Source: Minisyncoccota bacterium | GTDB taxonomy: Bacteria; Patescibacteriota; Minisyncoccia; Phycocordibacterales; UBA9973 | DNA length: 64,000 nucleotides | Assembly: GCA_031291825.1 (NCBI GenBank) | Contig: JARLIG010000009.1 | Location: 983 to 64,982, forward strand | Direction of reading: 5' to 3' | Shown here: piece after piece, positions 5,898 through 61,294 of the stretch | Position numbering within the stretch: the first letter of the stretch is position 1 | Layout: each line of letters opens with the position of its first letter | The notes under the pieces: model-generated | The model's database searches: none | Told to the model about the DNA's origin: nothing | Seen by the model: the letters and a program-made list of their open reading frames with translations, nothing else | Position numbers and translations under genes: made by a program

Positions 5898-5917
5898 GCT
5901 AAAAAAACAATCAAATA

Positions 5918-7162: not shown

Positions 7163-7215
7163 ATATTTCCACCCCGCCCTAAAGGGCACCCCTCAAGAGG
7201 GGAATTTCGATGCGT
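7163..7215. repeat. GC-rich REP-like hairpin unit (gccctaaagggc + cccctcaagagggg). It straddles the convergent stops of the dsbA-like and DUF559 genes. Copy A of a repeat also found at 8098-8190
   Basis: Two adjacent short perfect palindromes followed by a T-run on the plus strand. The sequence recurs inverted at 8098-8138 and direct at 8143-8190. Confidence 0.6.
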
Positions 7216-7666
7216 CTTTTCTTTTGTGTATTGTTTCTAGTACAAGCTGATATACACTACTCATATTTTTCTTAACATCTAAATCCAAAATTCTAACAAT
7301 CTGTAAGTTTAAACCTCCCATAAAAGCATCTCTTTCTGCATCATATTCTAATTTATCGTCATGACTTGAGCCATCTATCTCGAACACCAAACCTAGTTCA
7401 GGAATAAAAAAATCAACAATATAATTACCAATTATGACTTGCCTGTCTATGTCAAAACCGAGCTTCTTTTTATCCTTGAAAGTCTGCCAGAATAAAACTT
7501 CAGCCAAATTTCCAGCTTTTCTTAATTCTTTTGCTCTAGAAATTAAAAGTTTATTCTTTGGAATTTCCCAATATGGATATAAAGATTTAGGATCCCAAAA
7601 TGATTCCCTTTTTGAGGGGTGACTCGACCTTAGTCGAGACAGGGTGGAAAGATTCTTCTTCATCAT
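7193..7666 (-). CDS. DUF559 endonuclease-domain protein (Vsr/restriction-endonuclease-like fold)
   Basis: R..AE..FW...K.....F.RQ..IGNYIVDF......LVFEIDGSSHD......D..RD..M...GL.IVRI pattern of DUF559. The N-terminal ~30 codons include a GC-rich palindrome (ctcgaccttagtcgag), so the real start may be internal. Confidence 0.65.
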   Translation of the reverse strand: MMKKNLSTLSRLRSSHPSKRESFWDPKSLYPYWEIPKNKLLISRAKELRKAGNLAEVLFWQTFKDKKKLGFDIDRQVIIGNYIVDFFIPELGLVFEIDGSSHDDKLEYDAERDAFMGGLNLQIVRILDLDVKKNMSSVYQLVLETIHKRKDASKFPS

Positions 7667-7671
7667 TTAAA

Positions 7672-8082: not shown

Positions 8083-8094
8083 CTGCCCTTTGTG

Positions 8095-8190
8095 TTTTAT
8101 TCTCCTCTTGAGGAGTACCCTTTAGGGGGAGGTGGATGAATTTCCACCCCGGCGCAAAAGCGCCACCCCTCAAGAGGGGAATTTTAATCG
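8095..8190. repeat. Array of GC-rich REP-like hairpins: an inverted copy of the 7170-7212 unit (8098-8138) plus a direct copy (8143-8190), immediately 3' of the rpoD stop
   Basis: cctcttgaggagtaccctttagggggaggtgga is the near-reverse-complement of 7170-7210. atttccaccccggcgcaaaagcgccacccctcaagaggggaatttt is a direct copy. There are 5-6 consecutive small hairpins. Confidence 0.6.
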
Positions 8191-11852: not shown

Positions 11853-11885
11853 AGAAACCCCCGCAAGGGGGTTTCGTCTTTTATG
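11853..11885. terminator. Bidirectional intrinsic-terminator-like hairpin (gaaaccccc-GCAA-gggggtttc) with flanking A/T tracts, downstream of the MazF-like gene
   Basis: Perfect 9-bp stem with a GNRA-type loop and U-tracts on both strands. It is preceded by a ggc-ttcg-gcc mini-hairpin. Confidence 0.5.
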
Positions 11886-19260: not shown

Positions 19261-19959
19261 CTACTTATTCTCTTTCTTCCATTCCTCAATAAGTTTATGG
19301 TTTCCAGAGAGTAAAACTTTAGGAACTTTGTAATTTTTAATCTTTTTACCCTGAGCTTTGCCGAAGGGATATTTTAAAATTTCTGGTCTAGTATACACCT
19401 CGCTGGTGGACACACGTTCTTCTTCTAAAGATTCATATTTCCCTAAAACTCCTGGAATCTGACGAGAGATGGAATCAATCAAAACCATCGCTGGTAATTC
19501 CCCACCCGTCAGCACATAATCTCCGATTGAAAATTTTTTGGTTTTTAAAATTTTATCTACTCGTGCATCGATGCCCTCATATCTGCCACAGATTAAAATA
19601 ATATCTGAATATTTTTTGGAAAATGTTTTAGCGGAAGCAGTGGTAAATTTTTCCGCACTGGGAATAAAATTAATAATTAAAACTTTCGATTTTTTAATTC
19701 TTAATTCGTAATTCGTAATTTTCCTTAAAGCTGATTCAACAGCTTTAAGGATTGGTTCGGCTCGCATGACCATCCCCGGTCCACCGCCATATGGTTTATC
19801 ATCTACCGGCCTATAGTTATTTTTGGGAGCTTTAATAAAATCTCGTGGATTGTAAAATTTCACGGAAATTTTTTTCTCTTTAATCGCCCGCCCAATGATA
19901 GACTCATTTAGATATGAATCAAAACTTTCTGGAAAAATTGTAATTACATGAAAACGCAT
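19261..19959 (-). CDS. trmD: tRNA (guanine37-N1)-methyltransferase TrmD
   Basis: MRFHVITIFPE start, with GRYEGIDARV and SIGDYVLTGGELPA motifs. Start moved from the ORF start (20010) to the Met at 19959, because the extension encodes a GC hairpin. Confidence 0.85.
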   Translation of the reverse strand: MRFHVITIFPESFDSYLNESIIGRAIKEKKISVKFYNPRDFIKAPKNNYRPVDDKPYGGGPGMVMRAEPILKAVESALRKITNYELRIKKSKVLIINFIPSAEKFTTASAKTFSKKYSDIILICGRYEGIDARVDKILKTKKFSIGDYVLTGGELPAMVLIDSISRQIPGVLGKYESLEEERVSTSEVYTRPEILKYPFGKAQGKKIKNYKVPKVLLSGNHKLIEEWKKENK

Positions 19960-19985
19960 ATTTATATAAAATAGTGCGGCCAGCG

Positions 19986-20016
19986 TTTCCCCGAAGGTAG
20001 CACTGGCCAAAAAATA
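19986..20016. repeat. GC-rich hairpin (ggccag..ccccgaagg..ctggcc) in the trmD 5' leader
   Basis: Inverted repeat with a ccgaagg tetraloop module, the same sub-motif seen in the in-frame element cores. Confidence 0.4.
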
Positions 20017-20164
20017 GTTAATCCTTCTTATTCAACTCCGATTTAACGCAAGCCACAGCAAGCATTAAAATCAGGATACAAAATACCGCGACACCTCCGC
20101 ATAAATTTCCCATGACACCCTCCCGACTATATTAATACAACATTTTATGGAAAATATCAACAAC

Positions 20165-20200
20165 AAAAAAACCGACACTTTTCAGTATCGGTCTTTTTTA
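20165..20200 (-). terminator. Intrinsic terminator after the KH-domain gene (hairpin + TTTTTTT on the minus strand)
   Basis: On the minus strand, gaccgatactgaaaagtgtcggt is followed by ttttttgttgttg. Confidence 0.45.
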
Positions 20201-21102: not shown

Positions 21103-22248
21103 TTAGCGATGGCTGCCACCAGAAGAACGAGCACCACCTGATGGATGGAATCCACCACCAGAAGAAACTGGACGTGGTGCAGGAGATTGTCCTCCACCAA
21201 AGCGTGTACCAGTTACTGGGCGAACATTATATCCGCCAGAACCAGAAGTGCCATTGCCGCCACCAGCATAACCGCCGGAACCGTTGCCGTAACCACCAGC
21301 GCCAGAACCACCAGAACTTCCAGAGGTACCATTACCTCCGGAACCATAAGTACCCGAACCACCGTTACTAGGAGTTCCGCCACCTGTTGTGGGTGTTCTC
21401 CCAGGACCGCCGCTGACTCCGCCACCGACACCGAGACCGCCGCCAGCAAATCCGCCACCGCCAGAACCAGGATAGTAACCCCGACCGTGGTAACAGTAGC
21501 GACCACCCCACCAACCCCAAACCAAAAATGAATAACCGGGGTAGTAAAGCCCGACGTACGGACTTTCAACAACGACAACCTCTTGCTCATAATTTCTTCT
21601 TGAGCTAGAAGCAACTTGCTCTCCTCCGAGACAATCCGCCATTACTTTCTTGCGGGTTTTTTTGTCCAGCACTTTTAACAGTGCTGTCAGTCTTACCGCG
21701 TCTTGGCAAATTGCAGGCACAGGAGGTGCCTGCTGCATTGTTGGTTGCTGTTGCTGCTGATAGTTAGCACGCATTGGAGCAGGTGCTCCAGCTGGTGCTG
21801 GGGCAGAAGCTTGTGATGCAGCGGGCGCAGCGGGTTGAGTTGCTGTAGCCGTAGTTTGTGGTGCTGATGGATAAAAAATCCCATCGTTAGGGTTTCCGCA
21901 GGCATCGATTGCGTACGGAACCTCTTTCAAAGATCCATCTGCGTTGGTCTCCCAGCGCATCATGAAACCCTTGTGCTCCACTATCCACTGTTTTCCCGCT
22001 GTTGTCAGCGAGTGCAAGCAGGCATCCGCTTCAAGCGGAGCTGCAATCTTGCTCTTGCCGTCAACTGGTTCGTGACCTTTGAGCCCAAAAAACTTTGGCT
22101 CGTAGGTTGTGTAGTTACCGGAACGATAAGCTGCGCCGCAGCTATCCTTGTCCGGAAACATGTTCGGTTTGGATTGCGCGGTCACCGTGGTAGTTACCAC
22201 GATGAAAACAAAAAAAGTTGTAAAGAACAAACTGATTCTACGAATCAC
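21103..22248 (-). CDS. Secreted Gly/Ser/Pro-rich low-complexity protein with a Cys-containing N-terminal domain; compositionally GC-rich relative to its surroundings
   Basis: Signal peptide, ~120-aa domain with 6 Cys, PAAPAASQASAPAPAGAPAP and QQQQ linkers, a Tyr/Trp/Gly patch, then a ~130-aa GGxGS tail. The local GC is clearly above the window average. Confidence 0.55.
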   Translation of the reverse strand: MIRRISLFFTTFFVFIVVTTTVTAQSKPNMFPDKDSCGAAYRSGNYTTYEPKFFGLKGHEPVDGKSKIAAPLEADACLHSLTTAGKQWIVEHKGFMMRWETNADGSLKEVPYAIDACGNPNDGIFYPSAPQTTATATQPAAPAASQASAPAPAGAPAPMRANYQQQQQPTMQQAPPVPAICQDAVRLTALLKVLDKKTRKKVMADCLGGEQVASSSRRNYEQEVVVVESPYVGLYYPGYSFLVWGWWGGRYCYHGRGYYPGSGGGGFAGGGLGVGGGVSGGPGRTPTTGGGTPSNGGSGTYGSGGNGTSGSSGGSGAGGYGNGSGGYAGGGNGTSGSGGYNVRPVTGTRFGGGQSPAPRPVSSGGGFHPSGGARSSGGSHR

Positions 22249-22373: not shown

Positions 22374-24311
22374 GTGAAAAATCAAACGAACAATAAAGTA
22401 CAGGGCGTTATCTCTATCTCCTCTAAAGGCACAGGCTATGTCAAGGTTTTAGACCAAAAAGACGATATTGAAATTGATTCTCGAAATCTAAAAACTGCAC
22501 TACATGGCGATACAGTAGAGGTAGTCCTCCACCCTAAAAACCACGGGCGATTAAGCGGAGAAGTTTCTAAAATAATTTCTCGCGTGAAAATTCGCTTTGC
22601 AGGAATTTTAGAAGAAGAAAATAAAATGTTTTTTTTAAAGCCGGATGATACAAAAATGTATACCGACATTTTAGTTCCGAAAGAATCTTTAAATGGCGCA
22701 AAGGGAGGACAAAAAGTTTTTGTGGAAATAACTTCTTGGGTGGACGCAAAAAAAGCTCCGCTTGGAAAAGTGGTCAAAATTTTAGGACGTCCAGGCGACA
22801 ACGATACTGAGATGCATTCGATAGCCATGGAAAAAGGTTTCGACTCCGAACTGCCACACAAAGTGGAAGAGGAAGCCAGAAGCATCAAACAAGCAGGGAT
22901 AAAAGAAAGTGATTATGCCCTACGCCGTGACTTTAGAAAAATTTTAACTTTTACGATTGACCCCTCGGACGCTAAAGATTTCGATGATGCCCTATCTTTT
23001 AAAGAAGTTGGTAACGATGAGTATGAAATTGGCATTCACATTGCGGACGTTTCGCATTATGTAAAGGTCGGTAGCGCTTTAGATATCGAAGCGCGCGAGC
23101 GAGGTACTTCTGTTTATCTAGTAGATAGAACTATTCCGATGTTGCCAGAAATTCTTTCCAATGATTTATGCAGTTTAGTTCCTAACAAAGATAGACTCAC
23201 GATGAGCGCCGTTTTTGTAATTGATAAAAATGCGCAAGTCAAAAACGAATGGTTCGGACGTACGGTAATTCACTCGCAAAAAAGATTTACTTATGAAGAA
23301 GCAGAGGTTTCCATTAAAAAATCAACTGCTCCCCTACACAAAGAGCTCGCTATTTTAAATAATTTGGCAAAAAAACTAACAAAGGAAAGATTTTCTCAAG
23401 GCGCTATTTCGCTCGACCAAGAAGAAGTAAAATTTGTCCTTGATGAAAAAGGTGTGCCAATAAAAGTTATCAAAAAAGAGCGCGGAGATTCCAATAAGCT
23501 GATTGAAGAATTTATGCTTTTAGCAAATAGAAAAGTTGCCGAAGTATTGTCTCCTAAAAAAATCAAGGGCGTAAAAGACAAAAAAGAAGAAGAAAGTGTG
23601 TCTATTTATCGTATTCATGACTTACCAAGCAAAGAAAAAATGGCCGACTTAGCATTTTTCTTACGTAGCTTGGGACATAAAGTATCTTTACAAAATGGAA
23701 TAATTCCAACTTATGAAATAAATAAATTATTGGAAAGCTTGGCGGGAAAAAATGAAGCGGATACAGTTCACCGCGCCGTGATTCGTTCAATGGCCAAAGC
23801 AATTTATTCCACAAAGAACATCGGCCACTACGGACTAGCTTTTCAATATTACACACATTTCACTTCCCCCATCCGCAGATATCCAGACATTATGATTCAC
23901 CGGCTACTGGCTGACCATTTGGCTAAGAAAAAAAATACTATAGGTAAATTAATTGAATTCGAAAAGATGAGCCGCATTGCATCCGAACAAGAAAAGCGCG
24001 CCTCTGACGCAGAAAGGGCTTCTATCAAATACAAACAAGTCGAATATATGAGTAAACGTTTGGGTAAAAGTTTTACTGGAGTCATCAGTGGTATGACCGA
24101 ATGGGGTATGTATGTGGAAGAAACAGAAACAAAGTGTGAAGGACTGGTTCGTATGCGCGACATGGACGATGATTTTTATGTTTTCAATGAAAAAAAATTA
24201 GAATTAGTCGGACAGAAAAAGAAAAAAAGTTATCGCTTGGGTGATAAAGTAAAAATAAAAGTAAAGGCCGTTGATCTAGAAAGAAAAACCATAGACTATA
24301 CTCTGCTATGA
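22374..24311 (+). CDS. rnr: Ribonuclease R (RNB family 3'-5' exoribonuclease with a C-terminal S1 domain)
   Basis: RRDFR...TIDP.DAKDFDDA RNB motifs, cold-shock-like N-terminus, S1 domain at the C-terminus. Confidence 0.9.
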   Translation: MKNQTNNKVQGVISISSKGTGYVKVLDQKDDIEIDSRNLKTALHGDTVEVVLHPKNHGRLSGEVSKIISRVKIRFAGILEEENKMFFLKPDDTKMYTDILVPKESLNGAKGGQKVFVEITSWVDAKKAPLGKVVKILGRPGDNDTEMHSIAMEKGFDSELPHKVEEEARSIKQAGIKESDYALRRDFRKILTFTIDPSDAKDFDDALSFKEVGNDEYEIGIHIADVSHYVKVGSALDIEARERGTSVYLVDRTIPMLPEILSNDLCSLVPNKDRLTMSAVFVIDKNAQVKNEWFGRTVIHSQKRFTYEEAEVSIKKSTAPLHKELAILNNLAKKLTKERFSQGAISLDQEEVKFVLDEKGVPIKVIKKERGDSNKLIEEFMLLANRKVAEVLSPKKIKGVKDKKEEESVSIYRIHDLPSKEKMADLAFFLRSLGHKVSLQNGIIPTYEINKLLESLAGKNEADTVHRAVIRSMAKAIYSTKNIGHYGLAFQYYTHFTSPIRRYPDIMIHRLLADHLAKKKNTIGKLIEFEKMSRIASEQEKRASDAERASIKYKQVEYMSKRLGKSFTGVISGMTEWGMYVEETETKCEGLVRMRDMDDDFYVFNEKKLELVGQKKKKSYRLGDKVKIKVKAVDLERKTIDYTLL

Positions 24312-26251
24312 ATAATCCCGTAAATTCGAAAACTAAACAGACTATTAGCTTAATATTCTGGATTATTTCTGCAGTGGTTATCGGAATCATAATCGCATCA
24401 TTGTTTATTAAGGGAGGTAAATATGAAGCCTCTGTGTCACCAAAAGAAAAATCTGCAACGGTAATCCAAATAATTCCACCAATTGCGCCAGACCCAAACA
24501 TTCCGCAAGCACAATATTTTTATGTAAATAAAAACGAAAATGGACAACAGCCAAATGTTTCTGCTAAGGCATACTTGGTCGGCGATTTAAACACTGGTGA
24601 GGTAATTCTTTCTAAGAATCAAGACGAAAAATTTCCAATGGCTTCTGTTTCAAAACTTATGACCGCCTTGGTCGCCACTAAAATATTAAATCCAGAAGAT
24701 GATACCGCGCAAGTGACCAAAACAGCTTTGATAATTGAAGGCAAAAGCGAAGGTAAAAATGGGGAACTTTATTCTGGACAGCAAATAACCATTAACACCC
24801 TTTTGTATCCCCTTTTACTAGAATCCAGCAACGGCGCCGCAGAAGTTATTTCCGAATATTTCGGCAAGGATGATTTCATTTCAAAAATGAACCAAGAAGC
24901 AGCTAATTTAAAAATGGCCTCCACTTCTTACGAAGACCCGAGTGGGCTTTCAGTAAATAATCAATCAACTCCATCAGATTTGTTTAAATTAACTGGATAT
25001 ATCATGCAGAATTATCCGAGTTTATTTCAACTAACCACCCTTAGAAGTTATTCCAATAAAAAACAAAGCTGGTCAAATATCAGCCAATTCGTCGGACAAA
25101 ATGGTTATGCTGGAGGCAAAGAAGGTTATACTGACGCAGCCGACCAAACCGTCGTCGCTATTTTTGATTTACCTCTCGGGCAAACTGGCTATCGTCCCAT
25201 TGCAATTACTCTTCTACAAAGCACTGACCGTAAAAAAGATGTGGAAACTATTCTGCAGTATTTGAAAAATAATATTTATTACGGCGGATTAGCAGATGCA
25301 AATACGAACTGGGTACAAGAGAAAGTCGGCTCGCCAGACATAACACAGCCGAGCTATGTGACCATGGCTTTCGCTGGAGACATTATGCTCGACCGCGGAG
25401 TGAAAGATTCTGTTATTAAAAATTTCAATGATGACTATTCGGCAATTTTTGAAAACTTAAATATCTTCAAACAATCTGATATAGCATTTGCAAACTTAGA
25501 AGGCCCTATTTCAGACCAAGGCACGAATAAAAATAATTTATATTCTTTTAGAATGGATCCTGCTGTGGCGCCAGCATTAGCTGGCGCCGGTATCAGTATT
25601 TTATCCGTAGCAAATAACCATATCGGCGATTGGGGAATTTCCGCCTTCACTGATACTTTATCAAGCTTAAATGAAAATGAAATTGCCTACACTGGCGGAG
25701 GATTAACTGAGGCAGAAGCCGACGCGCCAACAATTATAAATAAATACGGAATGAAAATTGGTTTTCTGGCTTTCTCGGATGTTGGGCCAAATGACATGGC
25801 CGCGGGAGTAAACACACCGGGAATTCTTTTAGCTAGTGACCCAAACTTTGATAACATAATAAAAAATGCTGCGAGCCAAGTTGATGACCTTGTCGTCTCT
25901 TTCCATTTCGGTGATGAATATCAAACAAAACATAATGCAAGACAAGAACAGCTAGCGCATGAAGCCGTAAATGACGGAGCAAAAATTGTTATCGGATCTC
26001 ATCCGCACGTCGTGGAAGACACAGAAATTTATAAAAATTCCTATATTGCCTATTCCCTCGGTAATTTAGTTTTTGACCAGCCTTTCAGTGCAAACACAAT
26101 GCAAGGTATGCTTCTAGAAATTCAGTTAAACAAAGATGGTTCAATGATTGTTAAAAAAGATACAACACAGCTTAATTCCGCTTTTCAAATAGCAAAAGTC
26201 ACTATCGGTAAGCCGCAGAAAATAACTTTCCCTGTGGCTAAGACAAATTAA
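24308..26251 (+). CDS. Fusion protein: N-terminal TM helix + serine-type D-Ala-D-Ala carboxypeptidase (peptidase S11/PBP5-like) + C-terminal CapA-family metallophosphoesterase (PGA_cap)
   Basis: SxxK (ASVSKLMTA), SxN (ESSNGA) and K(T/E)G motifs, followed by the CapA signatures YVTMAFAGDIMLDRGV, ANNHIGDWG and GSHPHVV. Confidence 0.75.
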   Translation: MNNPVNSKTKQTISLIFWIISAVVIGIIIASLFIKGGKYEASVSPKEKSATVIQIIPPIAPDPNIPQAQYFYVNKNENGQQPNVSAKAYLVGDLNTGEVILSKNQDEKFPMASVSKLMTALVATKILNPEDDTAQVTKTALIIEGKSEGKNGELYSGQQITINTLLYPLLLESSNGAAEVISEYFGKDDFISKMNQEAANLKMASTSYEDPSGLSVNNQSTPSDLFKLTGYIMQNYPSLFQLTTLRSYSNKKQSWSNISQFVGQNGYAGGKEGYTDAADQTVVAIFDLPLGQTGYRPIAITLLQSTDRKKDVETILQYLKNNIYYGGLADANTNWVQEKVGSPDITQPSYVTMAFAGDIMLDRGVKDSVIKNFNDDYSAIFENLNIFKQSDIAFANLEGPISDQGTNKNNLYSFRMDPAVAPALAGAGISILSVANNHIGDWGISAFTDTLSSLNENEIAYTGGGLTEAEADAPTIINKYGMKIGFLAFSDVGPNDMAAGVNTPGILLASDPNFDNIIKNAASQVDDLVVSFHFGDEYQTKHNARQEQLAHEAVNDGAKIVIGSHPHVVEDTEIYKNSYIAYSLGNLVFDQPFSANTMQGMLLEIQLNKDGSMIVKKDTTQLNSAFQIAKVTIGKPQKITFPVAKTN

Positions 26252-26255: not shown

Positions 26256-28427
26256 CTATTTTGCAATTTGGGTAGCTTCTTCAAATTTTACAGAGAGAAG
26301 TTTAGAAGCTTCATCAGAGCCGATGGTGATGCCGTAAAGCACACCAGCACGAGACATCGTCTCACGATTGTGGGTGACGACGACGAGTTGTGAATGTTTA
26401 GAAAGTTTTTCTAGCATATCTCCGTATTTGCGAGAATTTGATTCGTCTAGCGCCGCATCAGTCTCATCAAGCACCAAAAATGGTGGCGGATTTACTTGTG
26501 ACATCGCAAAAAGAAGAGCAATAGATGTGAGCGAACGTTCCCCGCCAGAGAACGCATTTATTTCTTTTACTTTCTTGTGTGGCAAAGAAACATTTATTTC
26601 AATCCCTTTTTCAAAAAGAATTTCTTCTTCCTCTGCTAAATCTTTCAGTTCATCATCTTCATCAGATTCCGTGGCTCTTTTCTTTTTCGTTTCCACCACA
26701 ATTGAAAGTGAGCCATGCCCGCCACCAAACATCAATGAAAAGAATTCCTGAAATTCAACATTTATCTTTTTCACGCCTTCTTTAAATTCAATATCAATTT
26801 TTTCTTTGAGGTCTACGATAAGTTTCTTTAAAGATTCAATACTCTTTTCCAAGTCTTCCATTTCCTTTGCTAAAAATAGGTCTCGCTCGGAAACTTCCTT
26901 AAATTCCTTGATTAATTCAGCTCCATTACCGAGTCCAGCATCTTCCAACTTTATTTTAATACGTTCAATTTTTTTCTTTAATTCGTCTTGTAGATGCCCT
27001 GCGACTTCTTCCGTCACTTGATATTCTCTGTAAGAAAAAATCTCCTGCCCAATAAGCGCTGCGCCTTCTTTTATTTCAGTTTCAAAAACTTCCGCCCGAT
27101 TTCTTAAATTACCTTCCTTGATATGCACCAACTCCAAGGCTGAAGAAAGTTCTTGGTGGCGCACCTTGAATGCGAATTTCTCACGCTCCAAATCACGCAA
27201 GGCTTCCATCTCCTTATTTATTTCCTGTTTTAAAATTTCCGCAGCATGACTGCCTTCTTTTTCTTCCGCCTCTATTTTTTTGACCTCTTCGAGCGACCTA
27301 GCTTGAGAATTTTTTAATTCCTCGAGTTCTTTTTCTTCATTATGTTTTTTCTCTATCTGTTCTGGTCCCTCTTTTATCTCACTTCCGCAAAGTGGACATC
27401 GCCCTGAAACAGCCACTTTATTTGCTCTAGCCTCCAGGATACCTTCAATACGGCCGAGTTTGCGTTCAAGCTCACCTTTGCTAGAACGTAGAGAATTTAT
27501 TCTTTGTTCGAGTAGTCTGAGTTCTTCTAAAGAAGAACCCCCACCCATCCTCCCCCTTAATAAGGGGGAGGTGTCAGAATGACGGAGGGGGTCATTATCC
27601 TCAATAATAGAAATTTTTTCGTTTACAATTTTCAGTTCATCAGAAAGTTTTTTACTTTCTCCAGATAAAGATTCTTTTTCTTGTTCTAAATAGATACTTT
27701 CCTTTTTTAAATATTCTCGATAAAGCTCCGTCAGTTCCGACTGCATTTCTTTTGTTTTCTCAAATTTTTCCACCTGCTTTTTCAAAAAGTTCAAATGCGG
27801 AGCATTTTCGCGACGCTGCAAAACAACCTCTTTCATATTCTCGTTGGTCTTTTCCAGTTTTCTTTCCGATTCTTTTATCTTGTATTGATAAATTTTGAGT
27901 CCAAGCGCATCTTCTACCATCTCCCTTCTGTCGCGTGCATTGGCATTTAAAATTCTATCTGCCTCGCCTTGGGAAATGATATGGTGTCCGCTGGAGCCGA
28001 TGTTGACCGAGGCGAGCAAATTGTGAATATCTTTTAATCTTACCTCTGTACCGTTTAAAATATATTTATTGAGTCCGTCGGAATAAACTTCACGAGAAAT
28101 CGAAATGACATCGTAATTTAAATCCAAAGTATCTCCCCCATCATTTGTAAGTTTAAAAACTTTGTCAGTATTATTAAAATATATAGTAACTGAAGCTTTA
28201 GATCCAGCTGATAATTTCTTTGAGCCTTTGAAAATCAAATCCGAGCCTCCACGCCCGCGCATAGACTTCATGGACTGCTCGCCTAAAACGAAACGAAAAG
28301 CCTCCACAATATTGGATTTTCCGGAACCGTTCGGCCCAACGATAGAAACAACTGGAGTTTCAAATTCCAAAACCGTCTTTTGCGCAAAAGATTTGAATCC
28401 ATTCAATTGAAGTGTTTTCAGCCGCAT
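26256..28427 (-). CDS. smc: SMC-family chromosome condensation ATPase, miniaturised (723 aa), with a CxxC apex in place of a canonical hinge
   Basis: N-terminus MRLKTLQLNGFKSFA...VGPNGSGKSNIVEAFRFVLGEQSMKSMRG..DLIFKG (SMC signature). C-terminal LSGGE..LVLDETDAALD. Long coiled coils. Mid-protein GRCPLCGSE. Conserved rnc-smc gene order. Confidence 0.8.
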   Translation of the reverse strand: MRLKTLQLNGFKSFAQKTVLEFETPVVSIVGPNGSGKSNIVEAFRFVLGEQSMKSMRGRGGSDLIFKGSKKLSAGSKASVTIYFNNTDKVFKLTNDGGDTLDLNYDVISISREVYSDGLNKYILNGTEVRLKDIHNLLASVNIGSSGHHIISQGEADRILNANARDRREMVEDALGLKIYQYKIKESERKLEKTNENMKEVVLQRRENAPHLNFLKKQVEKFEKTKEMQSELTELYREYLKKESIYLEQEKESLSGESKKLSDELKIVNEKISIIEDNDPLRHSDTSPLLRGRMGGGSSLEELRLLEQRINSLRSSKGELERKLGRIEGILEARANKVAVSGRCPLCGSEIKEGPEQIEKKHNEEKELEELKNSQARSLEEVKKIEAEEKEGSHAAEILKQEINKEMEALRDLEREKFAFKVRHQELSSALELVHIKEGNLRNRAEVFETEIKEGAALIGQEIFSYREYQVTEEVAGHLQDELKKKIERIKIKLEDAGLGNGAELIKEFKEVSERDLFLAKEMEDLEKSIESLKKLIVDLKEKIDIEFKEGVKKINVEFQEFFSLMFGGGHGSLSIVVETKKKRATESDEDDELKDLAEEEEILFEKGIEINVSLPHKKVKEINAFSGGERSLTSIALLFAMSQVNPPPFLVLDETDAALDESNSRKYGDMLEKLSKHSQLVVVTHNRETMSRAGVLYGITIGSDEASKLLSVKFEEATQIAK
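27540..27600. repeat. GC-rich double hairpin (cctccccc-ttaataa-gggggagg; aatgac..gtcatt) embedded in frame within the smc coding sequence
   Basis: Seen directly. It encodes the DPLRHSDTSPLLRGRMGGG segment inside an otherwise AT-rich coiled-coil region. Confidence 0.5.
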
Positions 28428-33944: not shown

Positions 33945-36035
33945 CTAGATATCGATTTCGGCTAGCTTGGCGTTTGATTGGATGAATGATTTTCTGGGGG
34001 GAACTTCGGAGCCCATCAGAATATCAAAAATTTTATTTGCTTCTTCGGCGTCACCAATCATTACTTTTTTTAAGACACGATGCGCTGGATCCATGGTCGT
34101 CTCCCAAAGTTCTTCTGGATTCATTTCTCCGAGACCTTTATAGCGCTGAATATGAATCTTGTTTGATTTTTTAGCAGTTTCTTCTTTTGTTTCTTCTTCC
34201 TCTTCGATGGGTTCATCTCCCTCTACTACTTCTTGTATCTCGCTTACATCTCCACTCTTGCCCACAATTTTTATTTTTTCTTCATCAGTATAAGCGTAAG
34301 AAATTTCTTTGCCTTTTTTTATTTTATAAAGCGGTGGTTGAGCGATATAAATGTATCCAGCATCAATCACTGCTCTGAAATATCGATAGAAAAGAGTCAG
34401 TAATAGTGTGCTGATGTGCGCACCGTCCACGTCGGCATCGGTCGCAATGATTATTTTATGATAACGCATTTTTTCTAAATCAAAGGTATCACCAATCGAG
34501 GTGCCCATAGCAATCACCAACGATTTCACTTCTCTGGAAGCTAACATCTTGTCTATACGCGCACGCTCAACATTTAAAATCTTTCCTCGAAGTGGCAAGA
34601 TGGCTTGAGTTCGACGATCTCGTCCTTGTTTCGCACTACCGCCCGCAGAATCTCCCTCCACAATAAATAGTTCCGAGTCAGCAGCATTTTTACTTTGACA
34701 ATCAGCCAACTTTCCCGGCAAAGTCATACCTTCAAGTGCGCCTTTACGTAAAATAGAATCCTTTGCGGCTTTGGCGGCTTTACGAGCCTTTAAGGCAAGA
34801 ATTGATTTATTGATTATGACTTTTGCTTCATCGGGATTTTCTTCTAAGAAGTTTGCAAAAGCTTCGCCGAAAACAGTCGCTACGGCACCCTGAGCTTCCA
34901 TACTGCCGAGCTTAGCCTTAGTCTGACCTTCAAATTGTATTTCGCGAAGCTTTACAGAGATGACTGCTGTCAAACCTTCCAAAACATCATCGCCGGTAAA
35001 TCCACCTTCGGACTCTTTCATCATTTCATTCTTCTTGCAGTAAGTATTTAAGGTTCGAGTCAAAGCTGTTTTAAAACCAGTCACATGTGTACCACCTTCT
35101 GGTGTATTGATATTGTTCGCAAAAGGAATAATGCGTTCTGAAATATCATCCACGTATTGCAAAGCTATTTCCACGCCGACATTGTCTAACTCTTTTTCAA
35201 CATAAAAAATATTATTCTGAACTGGCTTTTGAAATTTATTTAAATATTTTACGAGCGAAACCAACCCACCTTCGAAATAGAAAGACACGGAAGGAATCTC
35301 CAACCCGAGTTCTCTAAAATAGAATACGTCCGATGTGTCTATTTTTCCTTCCACTCCGCGGGCGTCAATAATAAGTATTTTTAATTTTTTAACCAGGTAG
35401 GCTTGTTGACGAATGTGAGCCACAACCGTATTCCAATCAAATTTTATATCGCCAAAGATTTCTTTGTCCGGTTCAAAAGTGATAATTGTGCCGTGCAGTT
35501 TTGAAGAACTCACTTTTTTGACTGCAGACTTTCTTTTACCCTGAGAATATTCTTGCATATATCTGCCACCATCGCGACAAACTTCTGCTTCACAGAAAAC
35601 AGAAAGCGCATTCACAACAGAAGCGCCGACTCCGTGCAATCCTCCAGAGACTTTATATCCTTCTCCGCCGAATTTTCCTCCAGCATGCAGTGTAGTCATA
35701 ACAGTTTCGAGTGCAGAAACTTTTGTCTTCTTGTGCATATCCACGGGAATACCTCGGCCATTGTCGGCTACGCGAATTCGATTATTTGGCAAAAGTACAA
35801 TTTCAATATCATCACAAAAACCACCCATCGCTTCATCACGGGAATTGTCAAAAATCTCCCAAACTAGGTGGTGTAAGCCTTCAGGACCAGTTGTACCAAT
35901 GTACATACCAGGACGGCGCCTAACAGGCTCTAGGCCCTCTAGAACTGAAATGTCAGAAGCATCATAACGATGCCCCTTGTCGGAGACATTATCTGTTCTG
36001 CCGGCATCTTTTTTGCCCTCTTTTCCTTTTGCCAT
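33945..36035 (-). CDS. gyrB: DNA gyrase subunit B (type IIA topoisomerase ATPase subunit; GyrB/ParE)
   Basis: GHKL ATPase motifs, EGDSAGG, PLRGKILN, the TOPRIM domain and an acidic C-terminal tail. Confidence 0.9.
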   Translation of the reverse strand: MAKGKEGKKDAGRTDNVSDKGHRYDASDISVLEGLEPVRRRPGMYIGTTGPEGLHHLVWEIFDNSRDEAMGGFCDDIEIVLLPNNRIRVADNGRGIPVDMHKKTKVSALETVMTTLHAGGKFGGEGYKVSGGLHGVGASVVNALSVFCEAEVCRDGGRYMQEYSQGKRKSAVKKVSSSKLHGTIITFEPDKEIFGDIKFDWNTVVAHIRQQAYLVKKLKILIIDARGVEGKIDTSDVFYFRELGLEIPSVSFYFEGGLVSLVKYLNKFQKPVQNNIFYVEKELDNVGVEIALQYVDDISERIIPFANNINTPEGGTHVTGFKTALTRTLNTYCKKNEMMKESEGGFTGDDVLEGLTAVISVKLREIQFEGQTKAKLGSMEAQGAVATVFGEAFANFLEENPDEAKVIINKSILALKARKAAKAAKDSILRKGALEGMTLPGKLADCQSKNAADSELFIVEGDSAGGSAKQGRDRRTQAILPLRGKILNVERARIDKMLASREVKSLVIAMGTSIGDTFDLEKMRYHKIIIATDADVDGAHISTLLLTLFYRYFRAVIDAGYIYIAQPPLYKIKKGKEISYAYTDEEKIKIVGKSGDVSEIQEVVEGDEPIEEEEETKEETAKKSNKIHIQRYKGLGEMNPEELWETTMDPAHRVLKKVMIGDAEEANKIFDILMGSEVPPRKSFIQSNAKLAEIDI

Positions 36036-36056: not shown

Positions 36057-37865
36057 TTATCTCACCTGCCAACCATTATTCTCCTTGATTTTATTAGTTA
36101 TTTTAGTCATAATATCGTTCACTTCTTGGTCAGTCAAAGTCCTTTCGTAAGACTGAAAAACTAATCTAAAAGCGTAAGAAATTTTCCCATCTTTTTTAAA
36201 TTCATCAAAAAGTTCTGGTCCTCGCACAACCACCTCTCCCATATTTTCTTTTATTATTTTTTCTACTTTGGAACTTTTTACGTCCTCTCCCACCCAGACT
36301 GCCATATCACGTGCGATAAAAGGAAACAGGGACCACATTTTAAATATCGGAGCAGAATTCTGCTGGCGGAAGGTTCCAGCCGAAGGCTGGAGTAATGCCG
36401 AAGAATTCTGCTCCGATATTTCTTTACAGAATTCATTGAGTGTCATTTCTTTTACTTCTTTTTTGTTTCCGAAGGCAATATGCATTTCTTCCCCGCTCTT
36501 TTTAAACACCGTTCCAATTTCAAAAACTTTCGCTTGTTCTACTCCCAAAAGCGGCGCATTGGCTTGATTTAACTTTACGCTTTCTTTTAATCCGTCCGAT
36601 AAATTTGTTCGCAAAAAGTTTTTGTCGGAAGCCGAAGCCAAGACAGACACTTCTCCTTTGTTACTGAAACTCGTATTCATCACCTCAGAATATCCATCAT
36701 TTAACAATTTGTGTCTGGCCCAAAGAATTTTTGAATATGTTTCATTTACTTTTGGTTTAAAATTTATTTTAGGAATATTCCCTTTTACTTTGTCGTAGCC
36801 TAAAATTCTTCCTACTTCTTCCGCCATATCTTCTTCAATCACTAAATCTAGTCGCATTGGTGGCACTGTAATTTCAAAACTTCCCCTATCTTCGCTGTAT
36901 TCAAAATTATATTTCTTTAAAATATTTTTGATTTCATCAATTGAAATGCCCACGCCTAAAATTTTAGAAATTTTATCAACGGAAAAAGAAAGTTTTTTAA
37001 CTTCCTGCTTCTTTGGGTAAACATCGACAACATCTTCAAAGGAGGCCAGAGGACACATTTCTAAGATAAGAGCTGAAAATTCAAGCATGGCATAAGAACC
37101 GAGCTCTGGAGACAAATCATTTTCAAAACGCTTTTTGGCATCAGTGACGATGTTTAAAGCTTGAGCGGTTTTGCGAACGGAAGTCGGGTCAAAATTTGCT
37201 ACCTCTAAAATAATATTTTTTGTGTCATTATTTACTTCCGCAATTTTTCCACCTTTTATCCCAGCCACGGCAAGAACATTTTTAGCGTCGGCAATAACCA
37301 AATGAGAAGTTTCTAATTTACAATCTTTGTTGTCTAATGTTGTCATCTTTTCACTATCTTTTGCCATGCGAGCCACCAACTTCTCACTCACTTTATCTAA
37401 ATCAAAAACATGTGTCGGCTGACCACAATCAAACATCACAATGTTTGCCGCATCCACCATATTATTAATGCTTCTCTGCCCTACTGATTCCAAATGCTTT
37501 ACTACCCACTCTGGAGAAGGACCAACTTTTACATTGCGAATGATTCGCCCCATGTATCGACGACATTTATCACTTTCTATTTCTATCTTTAGATTAGTCA
37601 ATTTTGATTCTGGAATTTTATATTTTGGAGTGGGGTCAACAAATTTTATATTTAAAAGTGAAGCGAGTTCTCGAGCTACTCCTTGATGTGAAAGCAAATC
37701 ATGTGCGCGGTTTGGTAAAACTTTAATATCAAAAATAATATCTCCATCAGATTTTTTTTCCAGACTTTCTACCTCGCAAAGATGGTAATTAAAAATATCA
37801 ACCAATTTTTCAGCTTCGGGAGCTTCTGGGATATACCATTTGAGCCAATTGTAGGAAATATTCAT
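36057..37865 (-). CDS. pheT: Phenylalanyl-tRNA synthetase beta subunit (reduced, 602 aa) carrying an in-frame palindromic-element insertion
   Basis: B3/B4 and B5 domains, FPFIARDMAVWV motif; its position after pheS. Confidence 0.85.
   Translation of the reverse strand: MNISYNWLKWYIPEAPEAEKLVDIFNYHLCEVESLEKKSDGDIIFDIKVLPNRAHDLLSHQGVARELASLLNIKFVDPTPKYKIPESKLTNLKIEIESDKCRRYMGRIIRNVKVGPSPEWVVKHLESVGQRSINNMVDAANIVMFDCGQPTHVFDLDKVSEKLVARMAKDSEKMTTLDNKDCKLETSHLVIADAKNVLAVAGIKGGKIAEVNNDTKNIILEVANFDPTSVRKTAQALNIVTDAKKRFENDLSPELGSYAMLEFSALILEMCPLASFEDVVDVYPKKQEVKKLSFSVDKISKILGVGISIDEIKNILKKYNFEYSEDRGSFEITVPPMRLDLVIEEDMAEEVGRILGYDKVKGNIPKINFKPKVNETYSKILWARHKLLNDGYSEVMNTSFSNKGEVSVLASASDKNFLRTNLSDGLKESVKLNQANAPLLGVEQAKVFEIGTVFKKSGEEMHIAFGNKKEVKEMTLNEFCKEISEQNSSALLQPSAGTFRQQNSAPIFKMWSLFPFIARDMAVWVGEDVKSSKVEKIIKENMGEVVVRGPELFDEFKKDGKISYAFRLVFQSYERTLTDQEVNDIMTKITNKIKENNGWQVR
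36342..36421. mobile_element. Palindromic GC-rich element, copy 1 (core A ggaaggttccagccgaaggctggagtaa between inverted arms aaatatcggagcagaattc / gaattctgctccgatattt), in frame within pheT
   Basis: Near-perfect 20-bp inverted arms and a core shared with 38375-38446 and 44486-44573. It encodes LLQPSAGTF in PheT. Confidence 0.7.
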
Positions 37866-47108: not shown

Positions 47109-47798
47109 TTATATATCTGTGGCTCTCTGGGAAACAGATGTTTGCAGAGAAAAAGGCGTAACAATTGGATTGTTTTTATTAGGAGCATAAGTTATTGTTC
47201 CAACTAAATGAATAATTACAAAAGGCTGTTGATAGTCACCAGACGAAGGAGATTCAGCGCCCAAGACTGAAAAACTAGAAGCGGAAGTATCGATAGTCAC
47301 TTCGGCTGGGGTTAATTGAACAAAAGTTTGTCCTCCGTCTGTTGATTTTGAAATCATTCCATTGTGAATGAGGTAAGCCCATTGGTCAGCTATGGCAGGA
47401 CACAGGCCTAAAGCAAAATTTGAGGCAGAGCAACCATAACTATTAGGATTACCATTTGCTGGTTCAAAAGCTAAGGCCCAACCACTTGGACAACTTCTAG
47501 GATAACCAGCGCTAGTAGTAGATAAAGAAACAGTGGGGTGTGATGAATCAAAACATTGATAATTATATCCAGTTCTTAAATTCCTAGACATATCTTCGAT
47601 GGTAAAACTCAGATTGTCCATAATTGAACGCATGTCTTTAGACTTATTGTAAAGCGCATTAGCGTTCAACAAAGCACCCATGCCGATAGTGACCACAACA
47701 ATAAAAAGCGCCACCGCGATTAGTGTTTCTATCAATGTATAACCTTTATTTTTTTGCTTGCCCCGCCATGGCGGGGTGAAGTTGAAATTTTTTTTCAT
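47109..47798 (-). CDS. Type IV pilus minor pilin (PilW-like)
   Basis: KGYTLIETLIAVALFIVVV prepilin motif. Confidence 0.65.
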   Translation of the reverse strand: MKKNFNFTPPWRGKQKNKGYTLIETLIAVALFIVVVTIGMGALLNANALYNKSKDMRSIMDNLSFTIEDMSRNLRTGYNYQCFDSSHPTVSLSTTSAGYPRSCPSGWALAFEPANGNPNSYGCSASNFALGLCPAIADQWAYLIHNGMISKSTDGGQTFVQLTPAEVTIDTSASSFSVLGAESPSSGDYQQPFVIIHLVGTITYAPNKNNPIVTPFSLQTSVSQRATDI

Positions 47799-53443: not shown

Positions 53444-53458
53444 AGTATCTATTATACA

Positions 53459-58913: not shown

Positions 58914-61294
58914 GCCAGCTTTCTTAAGAAGAACTTTTTTACCAAGAAATATTGCACAGCAATAAATATCAAGATTAGGAGTAATGCTCCACCGATAAAT
59001 CTAACCGGTGGATACGGAATTGTGATATTAAAAAAGTTTATCAAGAAAGGAACTTGCAGCGCTAAATAAAATACCAATAATTCAAATACTCCCAAATAGA
59101 GAAGTTGCTTCTTTTCTTTGGTGGTAATCGAACCACAGTATACATTTGTAGCAAAAAGTAAAAAGAAAAATCCAAAAATAATTAGAGCCAGTCCGACTAA
59201 AGTATTAGATGCAGCAACTTTTAAATATTCAGGACTAAAGGCAAAAACCAGTGCTGCCCCAACGGCCTCCACTACTCCACAAGCAAAAACTACTGGTAAA
59301 ACCCTTCTTAAAAAAGGCTTGTCGTTGGCAGGTAGTATTTTCCCCGAAGGGCGCAAGGCCCAATAAGAAATAAGGATGGTAGAAAATCCAACTGTGAAAT
59401 AGTTCATAAAAGTAATATTAAGCGGAGTGAATGGAAAAGAATATCCAAAAATACTTAAAATAATAAACAGAAATAATCCCGCAATACTTTGGTTGATATA
59501 AATACCTGAGCTGATTTCAATGCTACGAATAAAATGGTCTGCTAGCTCGACCGCTCCAGGTAAATCGGAAAAACTGTTCGTCATTAAGATAACATCCGCT
59601 AGTTGCCTAGTTACCGGCACACCATCAAACATCGCTATGCCAATGTCAGACTTTTTCATTGCCAAAGCATCATTAACTCCGTCTCCCACCATTGCCGTAA
59701 ATCCATCCTTTTTAAAAGCTTCCACTAGTTTCACTTTGTGTTCAGGTAAAACTTGCGCAAAGACAGTATACTTTTTGGCGCGCTCTCTAAAATCATCTTG
59801 ACTCCAAGTATCTAGTTCTTGCCCAGTCACTACATCATCTGCTCCATTTATTCCGACACTTTTTGCGACCGCAGCCACCGTTTTTAAATTATCACCAGAA
59901 AGAACACGTATGGTTATTCCTCTGTCCTGAAAAAATTTAATTGCGTCTTGTATTCCCTCTCGCAAGGTATTATGAAAAATAAAAATAGCAATGATCGAAA
60001 GATGTAACCCTTTTAAATCTTTAGGCAAACCAGATTCACTCGAGCGAGCGACACACAATACACGTTTTCCCAGTTGTGAATTTTCCTCGACGATATTTTC
60101 TAGCCATTTTTTTTCCACTGTATTAGAAACCTCTCCGAGCATGATATCTGGAGCGCCAATAAAGACCGATTGTAAAATATCTTTTTCTTTTATTTCTATG
60201 CCTCCAAAGCGACGCCAAGAAGAAAAAGACATCTTTTGAGTAACTTCTATTTTTTCTAAGTCTTGATTGTTGTTTTTATTTTCCAAATATTTTTTGACTG
60301 CCAAAATTGTTTCCGAAGAGTCGCTCAAGCTTGAAATACATAAAGAAGTAAGCATTCGAGCATATTCTTCGTTAAAGCCTTGCACTACGTGCATATCTTC
60401 GACTACCAGTTTATTGTCGGTCAACGTCCCTGTTTTATCAATGCAGATATTTTTTATTCTGCCTAATTTTTCTGTCGCATTTATTTCTTGAAAAAGAACA
60501 TTGCGTCGGGCATACGAAGCTGCGCCAATAGCGAACAACAAAGTTATAGCCACCGCGAGCCCTTGCGGCACAATTGTACTGGCTAAGGCTCCAGAAGAAG
60601 TAACTATCTCTAAACGCGGTATGTGCATTAAAATTCCCCGCACTACCACGAACACCAAAACCGCAATCAAGATATAGCCAGAATCTTTTATAACAATATT
60701 GGTCGCTTCTTGGATAGAACTTAAGTTGGTGGAATATTTTTTTACTTCCCCGGCAATTTTAGAAAGCCGACTGTCACGGAAAAGTCCTTGCGCTTCCATC
60801 ACGGCATCACCTGAAGTGATGATTGCTCCAGCGACAATTTTGTCATTTTCTTTCTTGGGAAAAGAATCTGACTCGCCAGTAATCAGCGCTTCGGATATTT
60901 CTAAATTATTGGAAGAGATTAAAACTCCATCACACGGCACTTGGTCGCCCAATTTTAATTTCAATAAATCACCTTTTACTATTTCTTCCGCTGGTACAAG
61001 TGTTTCGGTTGGACTTGTCCTGAGCGTAGTCGAAGGATTGATGCGTACCACTTTGAGAGCCGTCAACATCTGTAGTTTTTCCAAAAGCACTCGCGCGTGA
61101 ATATCTTGCGCAGTCGCAATAAAAGTATTCAATAAAAATATTACGCCTAAAAATAAACCCGCCTCAGGATTACCAAAAGCAAAAAGCAAAACCACCACAC
61201 AGAAAATAATTCCGTTGACTAAAACAAAAAAATTACGAAAAACAATCGGCCCGACAGAGGGCAACACTCGTCTGTAAAGTTCAAAATTCCGCAT
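58910..61294 (-). CDS. Cation-transporting P-type ATPase (P2/P3-type; Ca2+/Mg2+-type architecture)
   Basis: DKTGTLT phosphorylation site, TGES-like actuator (ITGESD), GDGVNDALAMKKSDIGIAM hinge, 8-10 TM helices. Confidence 0.85.
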   Translation of the reverse strand: MRNFELYRRVLPSVGPIVFRNFFVLVNGIIFCVVVLLFAFGNPEAGLFLGVIFLLNTFIATAQDIHARVLLEKLQMLTALKVVRINPSTTLRTSPTETLVPAEEIVKGDLLKLKLGDQVPCDGVLISSNNLEISEALITGESDSFPKKENDKIVAGAIITSGDAVMEAQGLFRDSRLSKIAGEVKKYSTNLSSIQEATNIVIKDSGYILIAVLVFVVVRGILMHIPRLEIVTSSGALASTIVPQGLAVAITLLFAIGAASYARRNVLFQEINATEKLGRIKNICIDKTGTLTDNKLVVEDMHVVQGFNEEYARMLTSLCISSLSDSSETILAVKKYLENKNNNQDLEKIEVTQKMSFSSWRRFGGIEIKEKDILQSVFIGAPDIMLGEVSNTVEKKWLENIVEENSQLGKRVLCVARSSESGLPKDLKGLHLSIIAIFIFHNTLREGIQDAIKFFQDRGITIRVLSGDNLKTVAAVAKSVGINGADDVVTGQELDTWSQDDFRERAKKYTVFAQVLPEHKVKLVEAFKKDGFTAMVGDGVNDALAMKKSDIGIAMFDGVPVTRQLADVILMTNSFSDLPGAVELADHFIRSIEISSGIYINQSIAGLFLFIILSIFGYSFPFTPLNITFMNYFTVGFSTILISYWALRPSGKILPANDKPFLRRVLPVVFACGVVEAVGAALVFAFSPEYLKVAASNTLVGLALIIFGFFFLLFATNVYCGSITTKEKKQLLYLGVFELLVFYLALQVPFLINFFNITIPYPPVRFIGGALLLILIFIAVQYFLVKKFFLRKLA

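Follow-up and report, generated by a model that had tools for sequence, protein, structure and literature searches.

In the 64,000-nucleotide (nt) stretch analysed here (the window; contig JARLIG010000009.1 of a Minisyncoccota bacterium), which has a GC content of 37% and belongs to a genome of the candidate phyla radiation (CPR)/Patescibacteria, a GC island lies within the coding region of smc. This island is probably one of the dispersed copies, here in frame, of a selfish GC-rich palindromic repeat with two hairpins, which behaves like the repetitive extragenic palindromes (REPs) or the Rickettsia palindromic elements (RPEs). The family to which it belongs, referred to as the smc-type family, is intergenic in ordinary GC-rich bacteria and sits inside many housekeeping genes of the gene-dense CPR bacteria, there always in an open frame; its arms are conserved across phyla and its inner hairpins covary. 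Another family of the window, the DUF559-type repeats, brackets a mobile cassette with a DUF559 endonuclease gene.

The smc repeat and its insertion site

The GC island of smc covers 57 nt (27537-27593) of the minus, coding strand and encodes DPLRHSDTSPLLRGRMGGG. The repeat itself, completed by G27593, amounts to 19 codons, which are residues 279-297 of a 723-aa SMC_N protein that is 100% identical to a protein from a 'Candidatus Pacebacteria' metagenome-assembled genome. The layout of the repeat, over ~54-57 nt, is ACCCCCTCC, a variable mini-hairpin (hp1), ACCTCCCCC, a 7-nt loop, GGGGGAGG, two unspecified nucleotides and GGGTGGGGGT, as detailed in Table 1. The original prediction had proposed a 60-bp GC island with two hairpins. 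The island and its larger hairpin, CCTCCCCC-TTAATAA-GGGGGAGG (hp2), are borne out: hp2 has no counterpart in 100 shuffles, and the fold of the 101-nt region beats 200 of 200 shuffles (z -3.6 as RNA, -4.4 as DNA). The predicted AATGAC...GTCATT hairpin also exists, but the mini-hairpin that is conserved when the copies are compared is GTCA-TTC-TGAC (27573-27583).

When 120 SMC homologs are aligned (P numbers denote homologous proteins and L numbers the DNA loci retrieved for comparison), the smc patch shows up as inserted sequence that the closest orthologs lack. The proteins P0002-P0005, which are 92-96% identical outside this region, do not have the segment and carry a short Ser/Gly/Asn linker instead. 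The same peptide is found at the same site in 14 homologs, occupying at least five places in the neighbour-joining tree, and six others have a different small insert, NPRH/QGGA. At the DNA level the repeat is present at the identical smc site in six orthologous loci, and across the seven filled alleles its arms are invariant while the inner parts vary in a compensatory fashion, with GTCA/TGAC, GCCC/GGGC or GCTCCGAC/GTCGGAGC in hp1 and TTAtTAA, GAGtCTC or TACaGTA in the loop of hp2.

The DNA around the repeat is mosaic. Outside a tract of ~130 nt, the window smc shares 87.7% of its DNA positions with the empty allele L001 and 78.2% with the filled allele L002. This order is reversed in the 72 nt that flank the element (17 codons upstream and 7 downstream), where 40/72 positions (55.6%) match L001 and 59/72 (81.9%) match L002; the former value is, by our own estimate from the counts, ~8 standard deviations below expectation. 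The reversed identities indicate that the tract, roughly 27510-27644, has a history separate from that of the rest of smc. As this tract is common to distant filled alleles, the element arrived, or is exchanged, by short-patch homologous recombination, passing from lineage to lineage with its short flanks in a homing-like manner. The window SMC protein nests among the empty alleles in the neighbour-joining tree, so that a gain in the window lineage is the simpler reading.

The inserted residues fall into a break of the coiled coil. In the AlphaFold2 model, a helix (residues 178-277) is followed by a non-helical region (278-297, with a predicted local distance difference test score below 50 at 283-296) and a further helix (298-337), and a matching break is predicted on the return arm (469-479). 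Such a low-confidence, apparently disordered break between two long helices should tolerate extra residues. The host protein is a short SMC_N protein with a CPLC apex and not a canonical hinge SMC: at the expected hinge position (residues 338-355) there is a short loop with CPLC, of which C344 and C347 are nearly invariant in 39 homologs, and which is reminiscent of a Rad50-type zinc hook. Among Paceibacterota and Nomurabacteria, homologs of 706-777 aa are frequent.

Distribution and structure of the smc-type family

A genome scan, with one genome per species, used the pattern ACCTCCCCC-N7-GGGGGAGG-NN-GGGTGG (32 nt, of which 23 bases are specified) and found 39 loci in several phyla, the hosts being Reyranella, Devosia, Rhodospirillales, Rhodocyclaceae, Cellvibrionaceae, Sphingosinicella, Chloroflexota, Spirochaetota, Acidimicrobiia, a cyanobacterium, Saccharibacteria, Nomurabacteria and Paceibacterota. 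Although the pattern demands none of them, the upstream ACCCCCTCC box, a variable mini-hairpin and the GGGGGT end are likewise present at almost every one of these loci; the ends ACCCCC and GGGGGT are inverted repeats. In the alignments of the copies (A2 and A5), the boxes ACCCCCTCC and CACCTCCCC are invariant and the two hairpins are present. A symmetric form without hp1 occurs in L010, L024 and L033, and L003 (17792-17845) has a variant whose arms are CCCTCTCC/GGAGAGGG and whose tail is GGGTGAGG. A scan of metagenomes added 107 further stretches with the repeat. The viral contigs that were scanned gave no match, the E. coli genomes scanned do not have the repeat and the plasmids scanned gave one partial match only.

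The three-helix structure is well defined by these copies. Over 31 copies, 93% of the positions concerned are paired and the covariation is 0.238, as compared with 0.088 in shuffles (none of 500 reaches the observed value) and at most 0.061 in controls with slid partners. For hp1, the 60 distinct 5' halves give a covariation of 0.374 against 0.119 in shuffles (again 0/500); its pair 11-23 is CG in 28 copies, GC in 20 and UA in 7. The three loop-proximal pairs of hp2 covary as well, pair 51-57 being UA in 14, GC in 12 and AU in 3 copies. When the window and 18 loci are compared with Rfam 15, there is no match at the gathering score and no family by E-value either, the best E-value match at the element being RsaF with 23.9 bits (threshold 60). 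The literature on palindromic or in-frame repeats of CPR/Parcubacteria yielded no account of this family.

The location of the copies depends on the genome. GC-rich Proteobacteria, Chloroflexota and Spirochaetota have the repeat between genes; in GC-rich genomes, 18 of 21 copies lie between open reading frames (ORFs) with a high GC content at the third codon position, often 5-25 nt past a stop codon. On low-GC contigs, 63 of 79 copies are inside long ORFs, defined as a frame without stop codons over 40 or more codons to either side of the element; 39 of these are sense and 24 antisense, and five frame/orientation classes are represented. The repeat itself usually leaves three to four of the six frames open. 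The remaining 16 low-GC copies are truly intergenic and abut stop codons, which rules out ribosomal bypass or split genes as a reading of these copies.

The host genes number 21. Eighteen are confirmed by Pfam: LepA, Fmt, PolA, AtpD, UvrB (at two sites), RF-1, TsaD, RsmA, ArgRS, a Mur ligase, CysRS, NusA, the CCA-adding enzyme (two copies), MnmA, ComEC, PurL, a racemase and TatD. The others are SMC, DnaG and the HsdM-like methylase of L152, the latter being read from its translation. The window DnaG has an empty site, which in L022, L046, L101 and L107 is filled. At one site of a Formyl_trans_N (Fmt-like) gene the element has opposite orientations, in L088 as compared with L065 and L108, and the peptides of different reading classes (TSPL.RGR, HLPL.KGE, LPL.KGEVPKAEGV) are unrelated.

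Two further observations concern copies inside genes. In L152, from a genome with 58% GC, two smc-type repeats (7123-7269) lie within a 594-aa ORF (6784-8568) that resembles a type I methylase (HsdM), as judged from the NPPF motif in its translation and from an HsdS-like neighbouring ORF; genic copies are therefore not confined to CPR bacteria. The RNase R gene of the window (22374-24311) has a second recurrent hot spot of insertion, in the loop between DFDDAISF and YEIGIHIADVS. The window and L001 have no insert in this loop; in L004 a dimer of the DUF559-type repeat lies there in frame, and other GC-rich inserts, 14-29 aa long, occur in L003, L005 and L006.

DUF559-type repeats and the endonuclease cassette

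The DUF559-type consensus is TCCACCCC, a variable hairpin and then ACCCCTCAAGAGGGGAAT. The proposal that the N-terminal patch of the DUF559 gene is a repeat holds, as the patch (7603-7648, minus strand) aligns with 7168-7205, 8099-8136 and 8143-8182. The encoded protein also matches Protein Data Bank entry 3hrl (E 2e-9). Among the 120 DUF559 homologs listed, most open with the element-coded peptide xSTPSRLKSSHPSRGE, some have two or three tandem copies of it and a minority is without it.

The layout of the cassette is alike in the window, L156, L157 and L159: an antisense plus sense pair of repeats lies upstream of DUF559, a sense repeat occupies the first DUF559 codons and an antisense repeat is located at or just after the stop codon. 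The dimer seen at 8099-8182 is also found upstream in L156 and L157. The cassette occurs in four genomic contexts, being preceded by rpoD and a non-homologous small ORF, or by pilM, or having pilB on one side and a response regulator on the other. For the last of these the window provides the empty site (Table 1); the proteins flanking this position in L159 and in the window are 77-84% identical, and the junctions could be compared directly. No fixed target motif is found at the insertion sites, and no target-site duplication in smc and DnaG or at the L159 cassette junctions. The small ORF between the upstream dimer and DUF559 differs by locus (window 7672-8082, 136 aa; L156 2163-2450, 95 aa; L157 2146-2481, 111 aa), and two of the three products are like membrane peptides. 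A BLASTP comparison of the window ORF with those of L156 and L157 gives no match, and this slot may collect variable cargo.

The smc-type repeats are also found near such genes. In L152, a DUF559-like gene between hsdM and hsdS is flanked by four copies matched by R1 (the covariance model for the smc-type element), and in L097, L079 and L141 one copy each lies next to a DUF559-like gene. Four of the five DUF559 matches in the element-centred loci are within ~250 nt of an R1 copy, for which the chance probability is ~0.002 by our rough estimate, these loci having been retrieved because they hold the element. A nuclease gene between inverted repeat copies is seen with DUF559-type repeats in the window, L156, L157 and L159 and with smc-type repeats in L152, L097 and L079. 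Both types have in common a C-rich box, a variable hairpin, ACC and a C-run/G-run hairpin, and both flank genes of the DUF559 family. No account of an association between DUF559 and repeats was found in the literature.

Proposed mode of spread and alternative explanations

The arrangement of the cassettes suggests a REPtron-like system with a different nuclease, the action of DUF559 on the repeats being proposed from the layout. The repeat-bracketed nuclease would act on hairpin or cruciform DNA, the breaks would be repaired by gene conversion, as in the systems of REPs and REP-associated tyrosine transposases (RAYTs) known as REPtrons but with another enzyme, and solo repeats would be non-autonomous derivatives. 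Insertions into genes would survive only if they are stop-free, in frame and in loops. In its widest form, this is an undescribed REPtron-like class of selfish element, in which bracketed DUF559 cassettes are mobile, solo repeats are spread across phyla and loops of essential CPR proteins are invaded by homing-like gene conversion; this wider reading is proposed tentatively and may well not hold in full.

Several observations weigh against this reading and against the selfish nature of the repeat. Only one smc-type copy is present in the window. The mosaic tract of smc could equally be due to an empty allele that converted the close relatives, although the tree favours a gain. There is no target-site duplication or clean junction, and the elements in smc and DnaG replace a few linker codons. 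The link between smc-type repeats and DUF559 comes from four of five loci, all retrieved for holding the element, and four more DUF559-type copies (in L004, L092 and L147) have no DUF559 gene in the same locus. The conservation of the arms across phyla could reflect a cellular function instead of selfish spread.

This last point leads to the possibility that the hairpins are nucleic-acid structures kept by the host (mRNA 3' stabilisers, processing or pause sites, protein-binding or G-quadruplex DNA), with spread being incidental. The near invariance of the arms together with the covarying stems agrees with it, as do the many copies of GC-rich genomes that lie 5-25 nt after a stop codon, mostly sense to the upstream gene, the abutment of low-GC intergenic copies on stop codons and the excess of U-G over G-U pairs on the C-rich to G-rich strand. 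Such a function is nevertheless unlikely to be the explanation, in view of genic copies in both orientations (39 versus 24) in unrelated genes, the patchy presence among close relatives, the lack of a T run after the hairpin and the lack of an Rfam family match. Moreover, ~80% of the low-GC copies are in ORFs, which is probably near the coding share of such genomes (a presumed figure) and therefore looks like indiscriminate insertion. If instead the peptide (..TSPLxRGRxGGG) were the adaptive feature of SMC and other hosts and the DNA palindrome its by-product, then its conservation among filled smc alleles and the recurrence of the same frame in DnaG, Fmt and PolA would be explained. The same DNA is however read in at least five frame/orientation classes that give unrelated peptides, intergenic copies exist, the compensatory stem changes alter the amino acids (RHSD, RPEG, SAFG) and the segment is predicted to be disordered, so that this alternative is very improbable. 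A mere coincidence of GC-rich codons does account for the ATPase patch and for the palindrome at 25567-25588 (conserved APALAGAG), but for the smc and DUF559 patches it is refuted by the absence of the segment in close orthologs, and for smc also by the model match (E 9e-16) and by the shuffles (0/100 match); as the explanation of the patches it has hardly any probability.

A selfish repeat could also be a classical REP or a MITE (a miniature transposable element with inverted repeats), mobilised by a RAYT (an HUH Y1 enzyme) or by the transposase of an insertion sequence, with DUF559 being irrelevant. The GTAG/CGTC REPs are short GC-rich stem-loops, often in head-to-head dimers and mostly intergenic, some of which are inside replication/repair genes such as uvrB (Di Nocera et al. 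2013, PMC3733652); the CGTC REPs occur in several phyla, mainly in alphaproteobacteria, and have no dedicated transposase (PMC3733652). The smc-type repeat is similar in having GC-rich stem-loops, dimers, often inverted, and both intergenic and genic copies. It differs from these REPs in having no unpaired GTAG or CGTC tag (CGTC is present only within the stem of the GTCA variant of hp1), in consisting of two hairpins and an outer helix where a REP has a single stem of 8-9 bp, and in stems that do not begin with AT pairs; its stems and loops are unlike those of the four described CGTC families. From MITEs it differs in that its inverted-repeat ends are not accompanied by a target-site duplication at the smc, DnaG and L159 junctions. 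In addition, the gene found bracketed is DUF559, no genome-wide search for RAYT having been made. The classical alternative is therefore judged to be quite unlikely.

The REPtron/REPIN-RAYT systems (PMC3733652) are similar in organisation, with a single-copy nuclease gene between inverted repeat copies and with the repeat elsewhere as solo units and dimers. In the system described here the bracketed gene encodes a DUF559/Vsr-like PD-(D/E)XK endonuclease and not an HUH Y1 transposase, and one DUF559-type repeat lies inside the 5' coding end of the nuclease gene itself. The REPtron/REPIN-RAYT systems have reportedly been studied by Nunvar (2010), Bertels and Rainey (2011) and Ton-Hoang (2012). 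The Vsr/DUF559 clade of PD-(D/E)XK nucleases includes a homing endonuclease of group I introns (I-Bth0305I family; PMC3424549). Break-induced gene conversion with co-converted flanks, as in homing, would give the pattern seen in smc; homing endonucleases of this kind are encoded in introns or inteins, and the activity of the CPR DUF559 protein is putative.

In-frame palindromic repeats in essential genes have so far been described mainly in Rickettsia. The RPEs (Ogata et al. 2000, summarised in PMC10969869) are palindromic repeats in frame in many unrelated housekeeping genes of a reduced genome, the short encoded peptides being tolerated by the proteins, and there are intergenic copies as well. 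The smc-type repeat is likewise in frame in unrelated protein genes (the 63 of 79 low-GC copies) and has empty orthologous sites in smc and DnaG. It is set apart by its size (54-57 nt, as compared with ~100-150 bp for RPE-1), by its hosts (CPR and other phyla, RPE-1 being confined to Rickettsia) and by its nested variable hairpin. The GC clusters of fungal mitochondria are GC-rich hairpin elements in AT-rich, gene-dense genomes, including coding regions (PMC4478555). The smc-type repeat shares with such hairpin and double-hairpin elements the AT-rich compact host genome and the genic copies, and it differs in that theirs is an organelle host and in that the sequences are unrelated. Double-hairpin elements of fungal mitochondria were reportedly described by Paquin et al. 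(2000), and the 'byp' elements of Lang et al. (2014) are said to be skipped by ribosomes. In contrast to the latter, no genic smc-type copy closes its reading frame, and the copies outside ORFs are truly intergenic.

The same behaviour in CPR/Patescibacteria, with 21 confirmed host genes, means that this mode of insertion recurs in small gene-dense genomes; it also steadily supplies core proteins with new surface loops. Annotation is affected in that the repeats give rise to indels specific to a lineage, to ORF starts placed too far upstream and probably to breaks in assemblies, many DUF559 contigs being only 1-2 kb long. Through the conserved bracketing, a very abundant domain of unknown function acquires a function that can be tested, and DUF559 becomes a candidate enzyme for REP-like repeats without RAYT; the conserved arms define a DNA substrate for biochemistry.

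Other hairpins and features of the window

Table 1. Features of the window, with strand and supporting evidence (CM, covariance model).
Feature	Position	Strand	Evidence or remark
Host gene smc	26256..28427	(-)	723-aa SMC_N protein; Pfam SMC_N E 8e-58
smc-type double-hairpin repeat (R1 family), in frame in smc	27537..27592	(-)	CM R1 79.9 bits, E 9e-16
5' box ACCCCCTCC, pairing with 3' G-rich tail	27584..27592	(-)	Alignments A2, A5; outer helix 94% paired
Variable mini-hairpin hp1, GTCA-TTC-TGAC	27573..27583	(-)	Covariation over 60 distinct copies
Hairpin hp2: CCTCCCCC, 7-nt palindromic loop, GGGGGAGG	27549..27571	(-)	Shuffles, fold z, covariation
3' tail AT-GGGTGGGGGT	27537..27548	(-)	Conserved in matches whose search pattern did not include the tail
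Mosaic tract, ~130 nt: element with ~50 nt upstream and ~20 nt downstream	27510..27644	(-)	Flank identities to L001 and L002
DUF559-type double-hairpin repeat, codons 7-22 of DUF559 ORF, sense	7603..7648	(-)	Alignment A3
DUF559 (Vsr-like PD-(D/E)XK endonuclease) gene, repeat-bracketed	7193..7666	(-)	PF04480 E 3.5e-21, residues 43-146
DUF559-type repeat, antisense to gene, overlapping DUF559 stop codon	7168..7205	(+)	Alignment A3
Inverted dimer of DUF559-type repeats	8099..8182	8099-8136 (-), 8143-8182 (+)	Between rpoD stop and ORF 7672-8082
Empty site, 15-nt PilB-response regulator spacer	53444..53458	(-)	L159 has a ~600-bp repeat-bracketed DUF559 cassette there
GC patch of P-type ATPase, conserved coding sequence, not an element	59336..59365	(-)	Ortholog alignment; no CM match
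Lone intergenic GC hairpin, GGCCAG...CTGGCC, CUUCGG centre	19978..20008	(-)	Between 31-aa ORF and trmD
Third, mini-hairpin family, CCCCGCC-AT-GGCGGGG-CAAG	47759..47776	(-)	In frame in prepilin leader peptide

The original prediction had grouped the patches in smc, the P-type ATPase, DUF559 and the trmD leader with the pheS/pheT/ligA elements and with the repeats at 7.17 and 8.1 kb, as one superfamily that colonises both coding and intergenic DNA. The colonisation is supported: the patches in smc and DUF559 belong to dispersed families and are lineage-specific insertions in the alignments. Perfect GC-rich hairpins number 10 in the window, as compared with 2.1+-1.4 in shuffles. A single superfamily by homology does not emerge. 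With R1 and with R2, a model of the 5' half of the smc-type element (cut-off E<=10), only the smc copy is found in the window, next to a single marginal match at 8126-8152 (E 4.9); the repeats at 7.17 and 8.1 kb, the pheS/pheT/ligA elements and the ATPase and trmD hairpins are missed. Homology among the smc-type, DUF559-type and pheS/pheT/ligA families is thus not supported, none being detectable. The sub-motifs said to link the patches are enriched over shuffles (14 versus 4.2+-2.1 for CCGAAGG, 6 versus 0.29 for TCCACCCYG). Much of the excess lies within the same families: within-family copies make up 3/14 and 5/6 of the sites, respectively, and several of the remaining CCGAAGG sites are ordinary coding sequence without a hairpin.

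Ortholog alignment, used as a check for insertion, finds conserved residues in the ATPase where it finds a lineage-specific insertion in SMC. The ATPase patch, of which the stems are of 4 bp only, was taken for an inserted hairpin, but it is not an insertion, because WALRPSGKILPA is kept in all 70 orthologs inspected, down to 54% identity. The hairpin of the trmD leader is real, but it is intergenic, not in frame, and matches neither R1 nor R2. The true trmD start is at 19959, with a 31-aa ORF (20018-20113) upstream. This unannotated minus-strand ORF, MGNLCGGVAVFCILILMLAVACVKSELNKKD, has a GGGAGGG ribosome-binding site and sits between an intrinsic terminator (20165-20198) and the leader hairpin.

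Some other candidates were rejected. The perfect palindrome at 25567-25588 is not an insertion, as it encodes the conserved APALAGAG. The hairpins at 5863-5896, 11854-11875 and 50556-70 are intergenic and appeared to be in ORFs whose starts were over-called. Mechanically assigned TTG starts are over-extended through GC hairpins in 4580-5914, 19261-20010 and 50033-50716, which made intergenic hairpins appear intragenic; the likely true starts are near 5815, 19959 and 50540.

The pheT/pheS/ligA family has five copies in both orientations (36349-36414, 38378-38443, 44417-44480, 44497-44562 and 45158-45209), with a 6-bp stem, a GNA/TNC triloop and compensatory changes (CCAGCC/GGCTGG versus CCGCCC/GGGTGG). 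A similarity to the 5' half of the smc-type repeat is seen in the core, CTCC-hairpin-GGAACC-TTCC, which neither R1 nor R2 detects. The third family, of the form (A)CCCCGCC-nn-GGCGGGG-CAAG, is also present at 50554-50572 (5' untranslated region of another pilin gene), in L047 (3849-3867) and in L048 (3855-3873). The prepilin leader that contains it reads MKKNFNFTPPWRGKQKNKG|YTLIE. In L047 and L048 it lies in the smc linker, where the peptides are NPRQGGA and NPRHSGA; two unrelated families of hairpins have therefore settled in the same linker.

The gene at 21103-22248 (minus strand; 53% GC), with low-complexity Q/P/A/G-rich stretches, accounts for several GC islands of the window and contains no member of the repeat families. 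A GyrB intein (PF14890; 1124-1125 aa) is present in two related genomes (L003 852-4229, L007 1-916). The window ORF 33945-36035 (696 aa), which lies downstream of pheS-pheT as in L005, is a putative GyrB by gene order, and its length fits the intein-free form (699 aa in L005).

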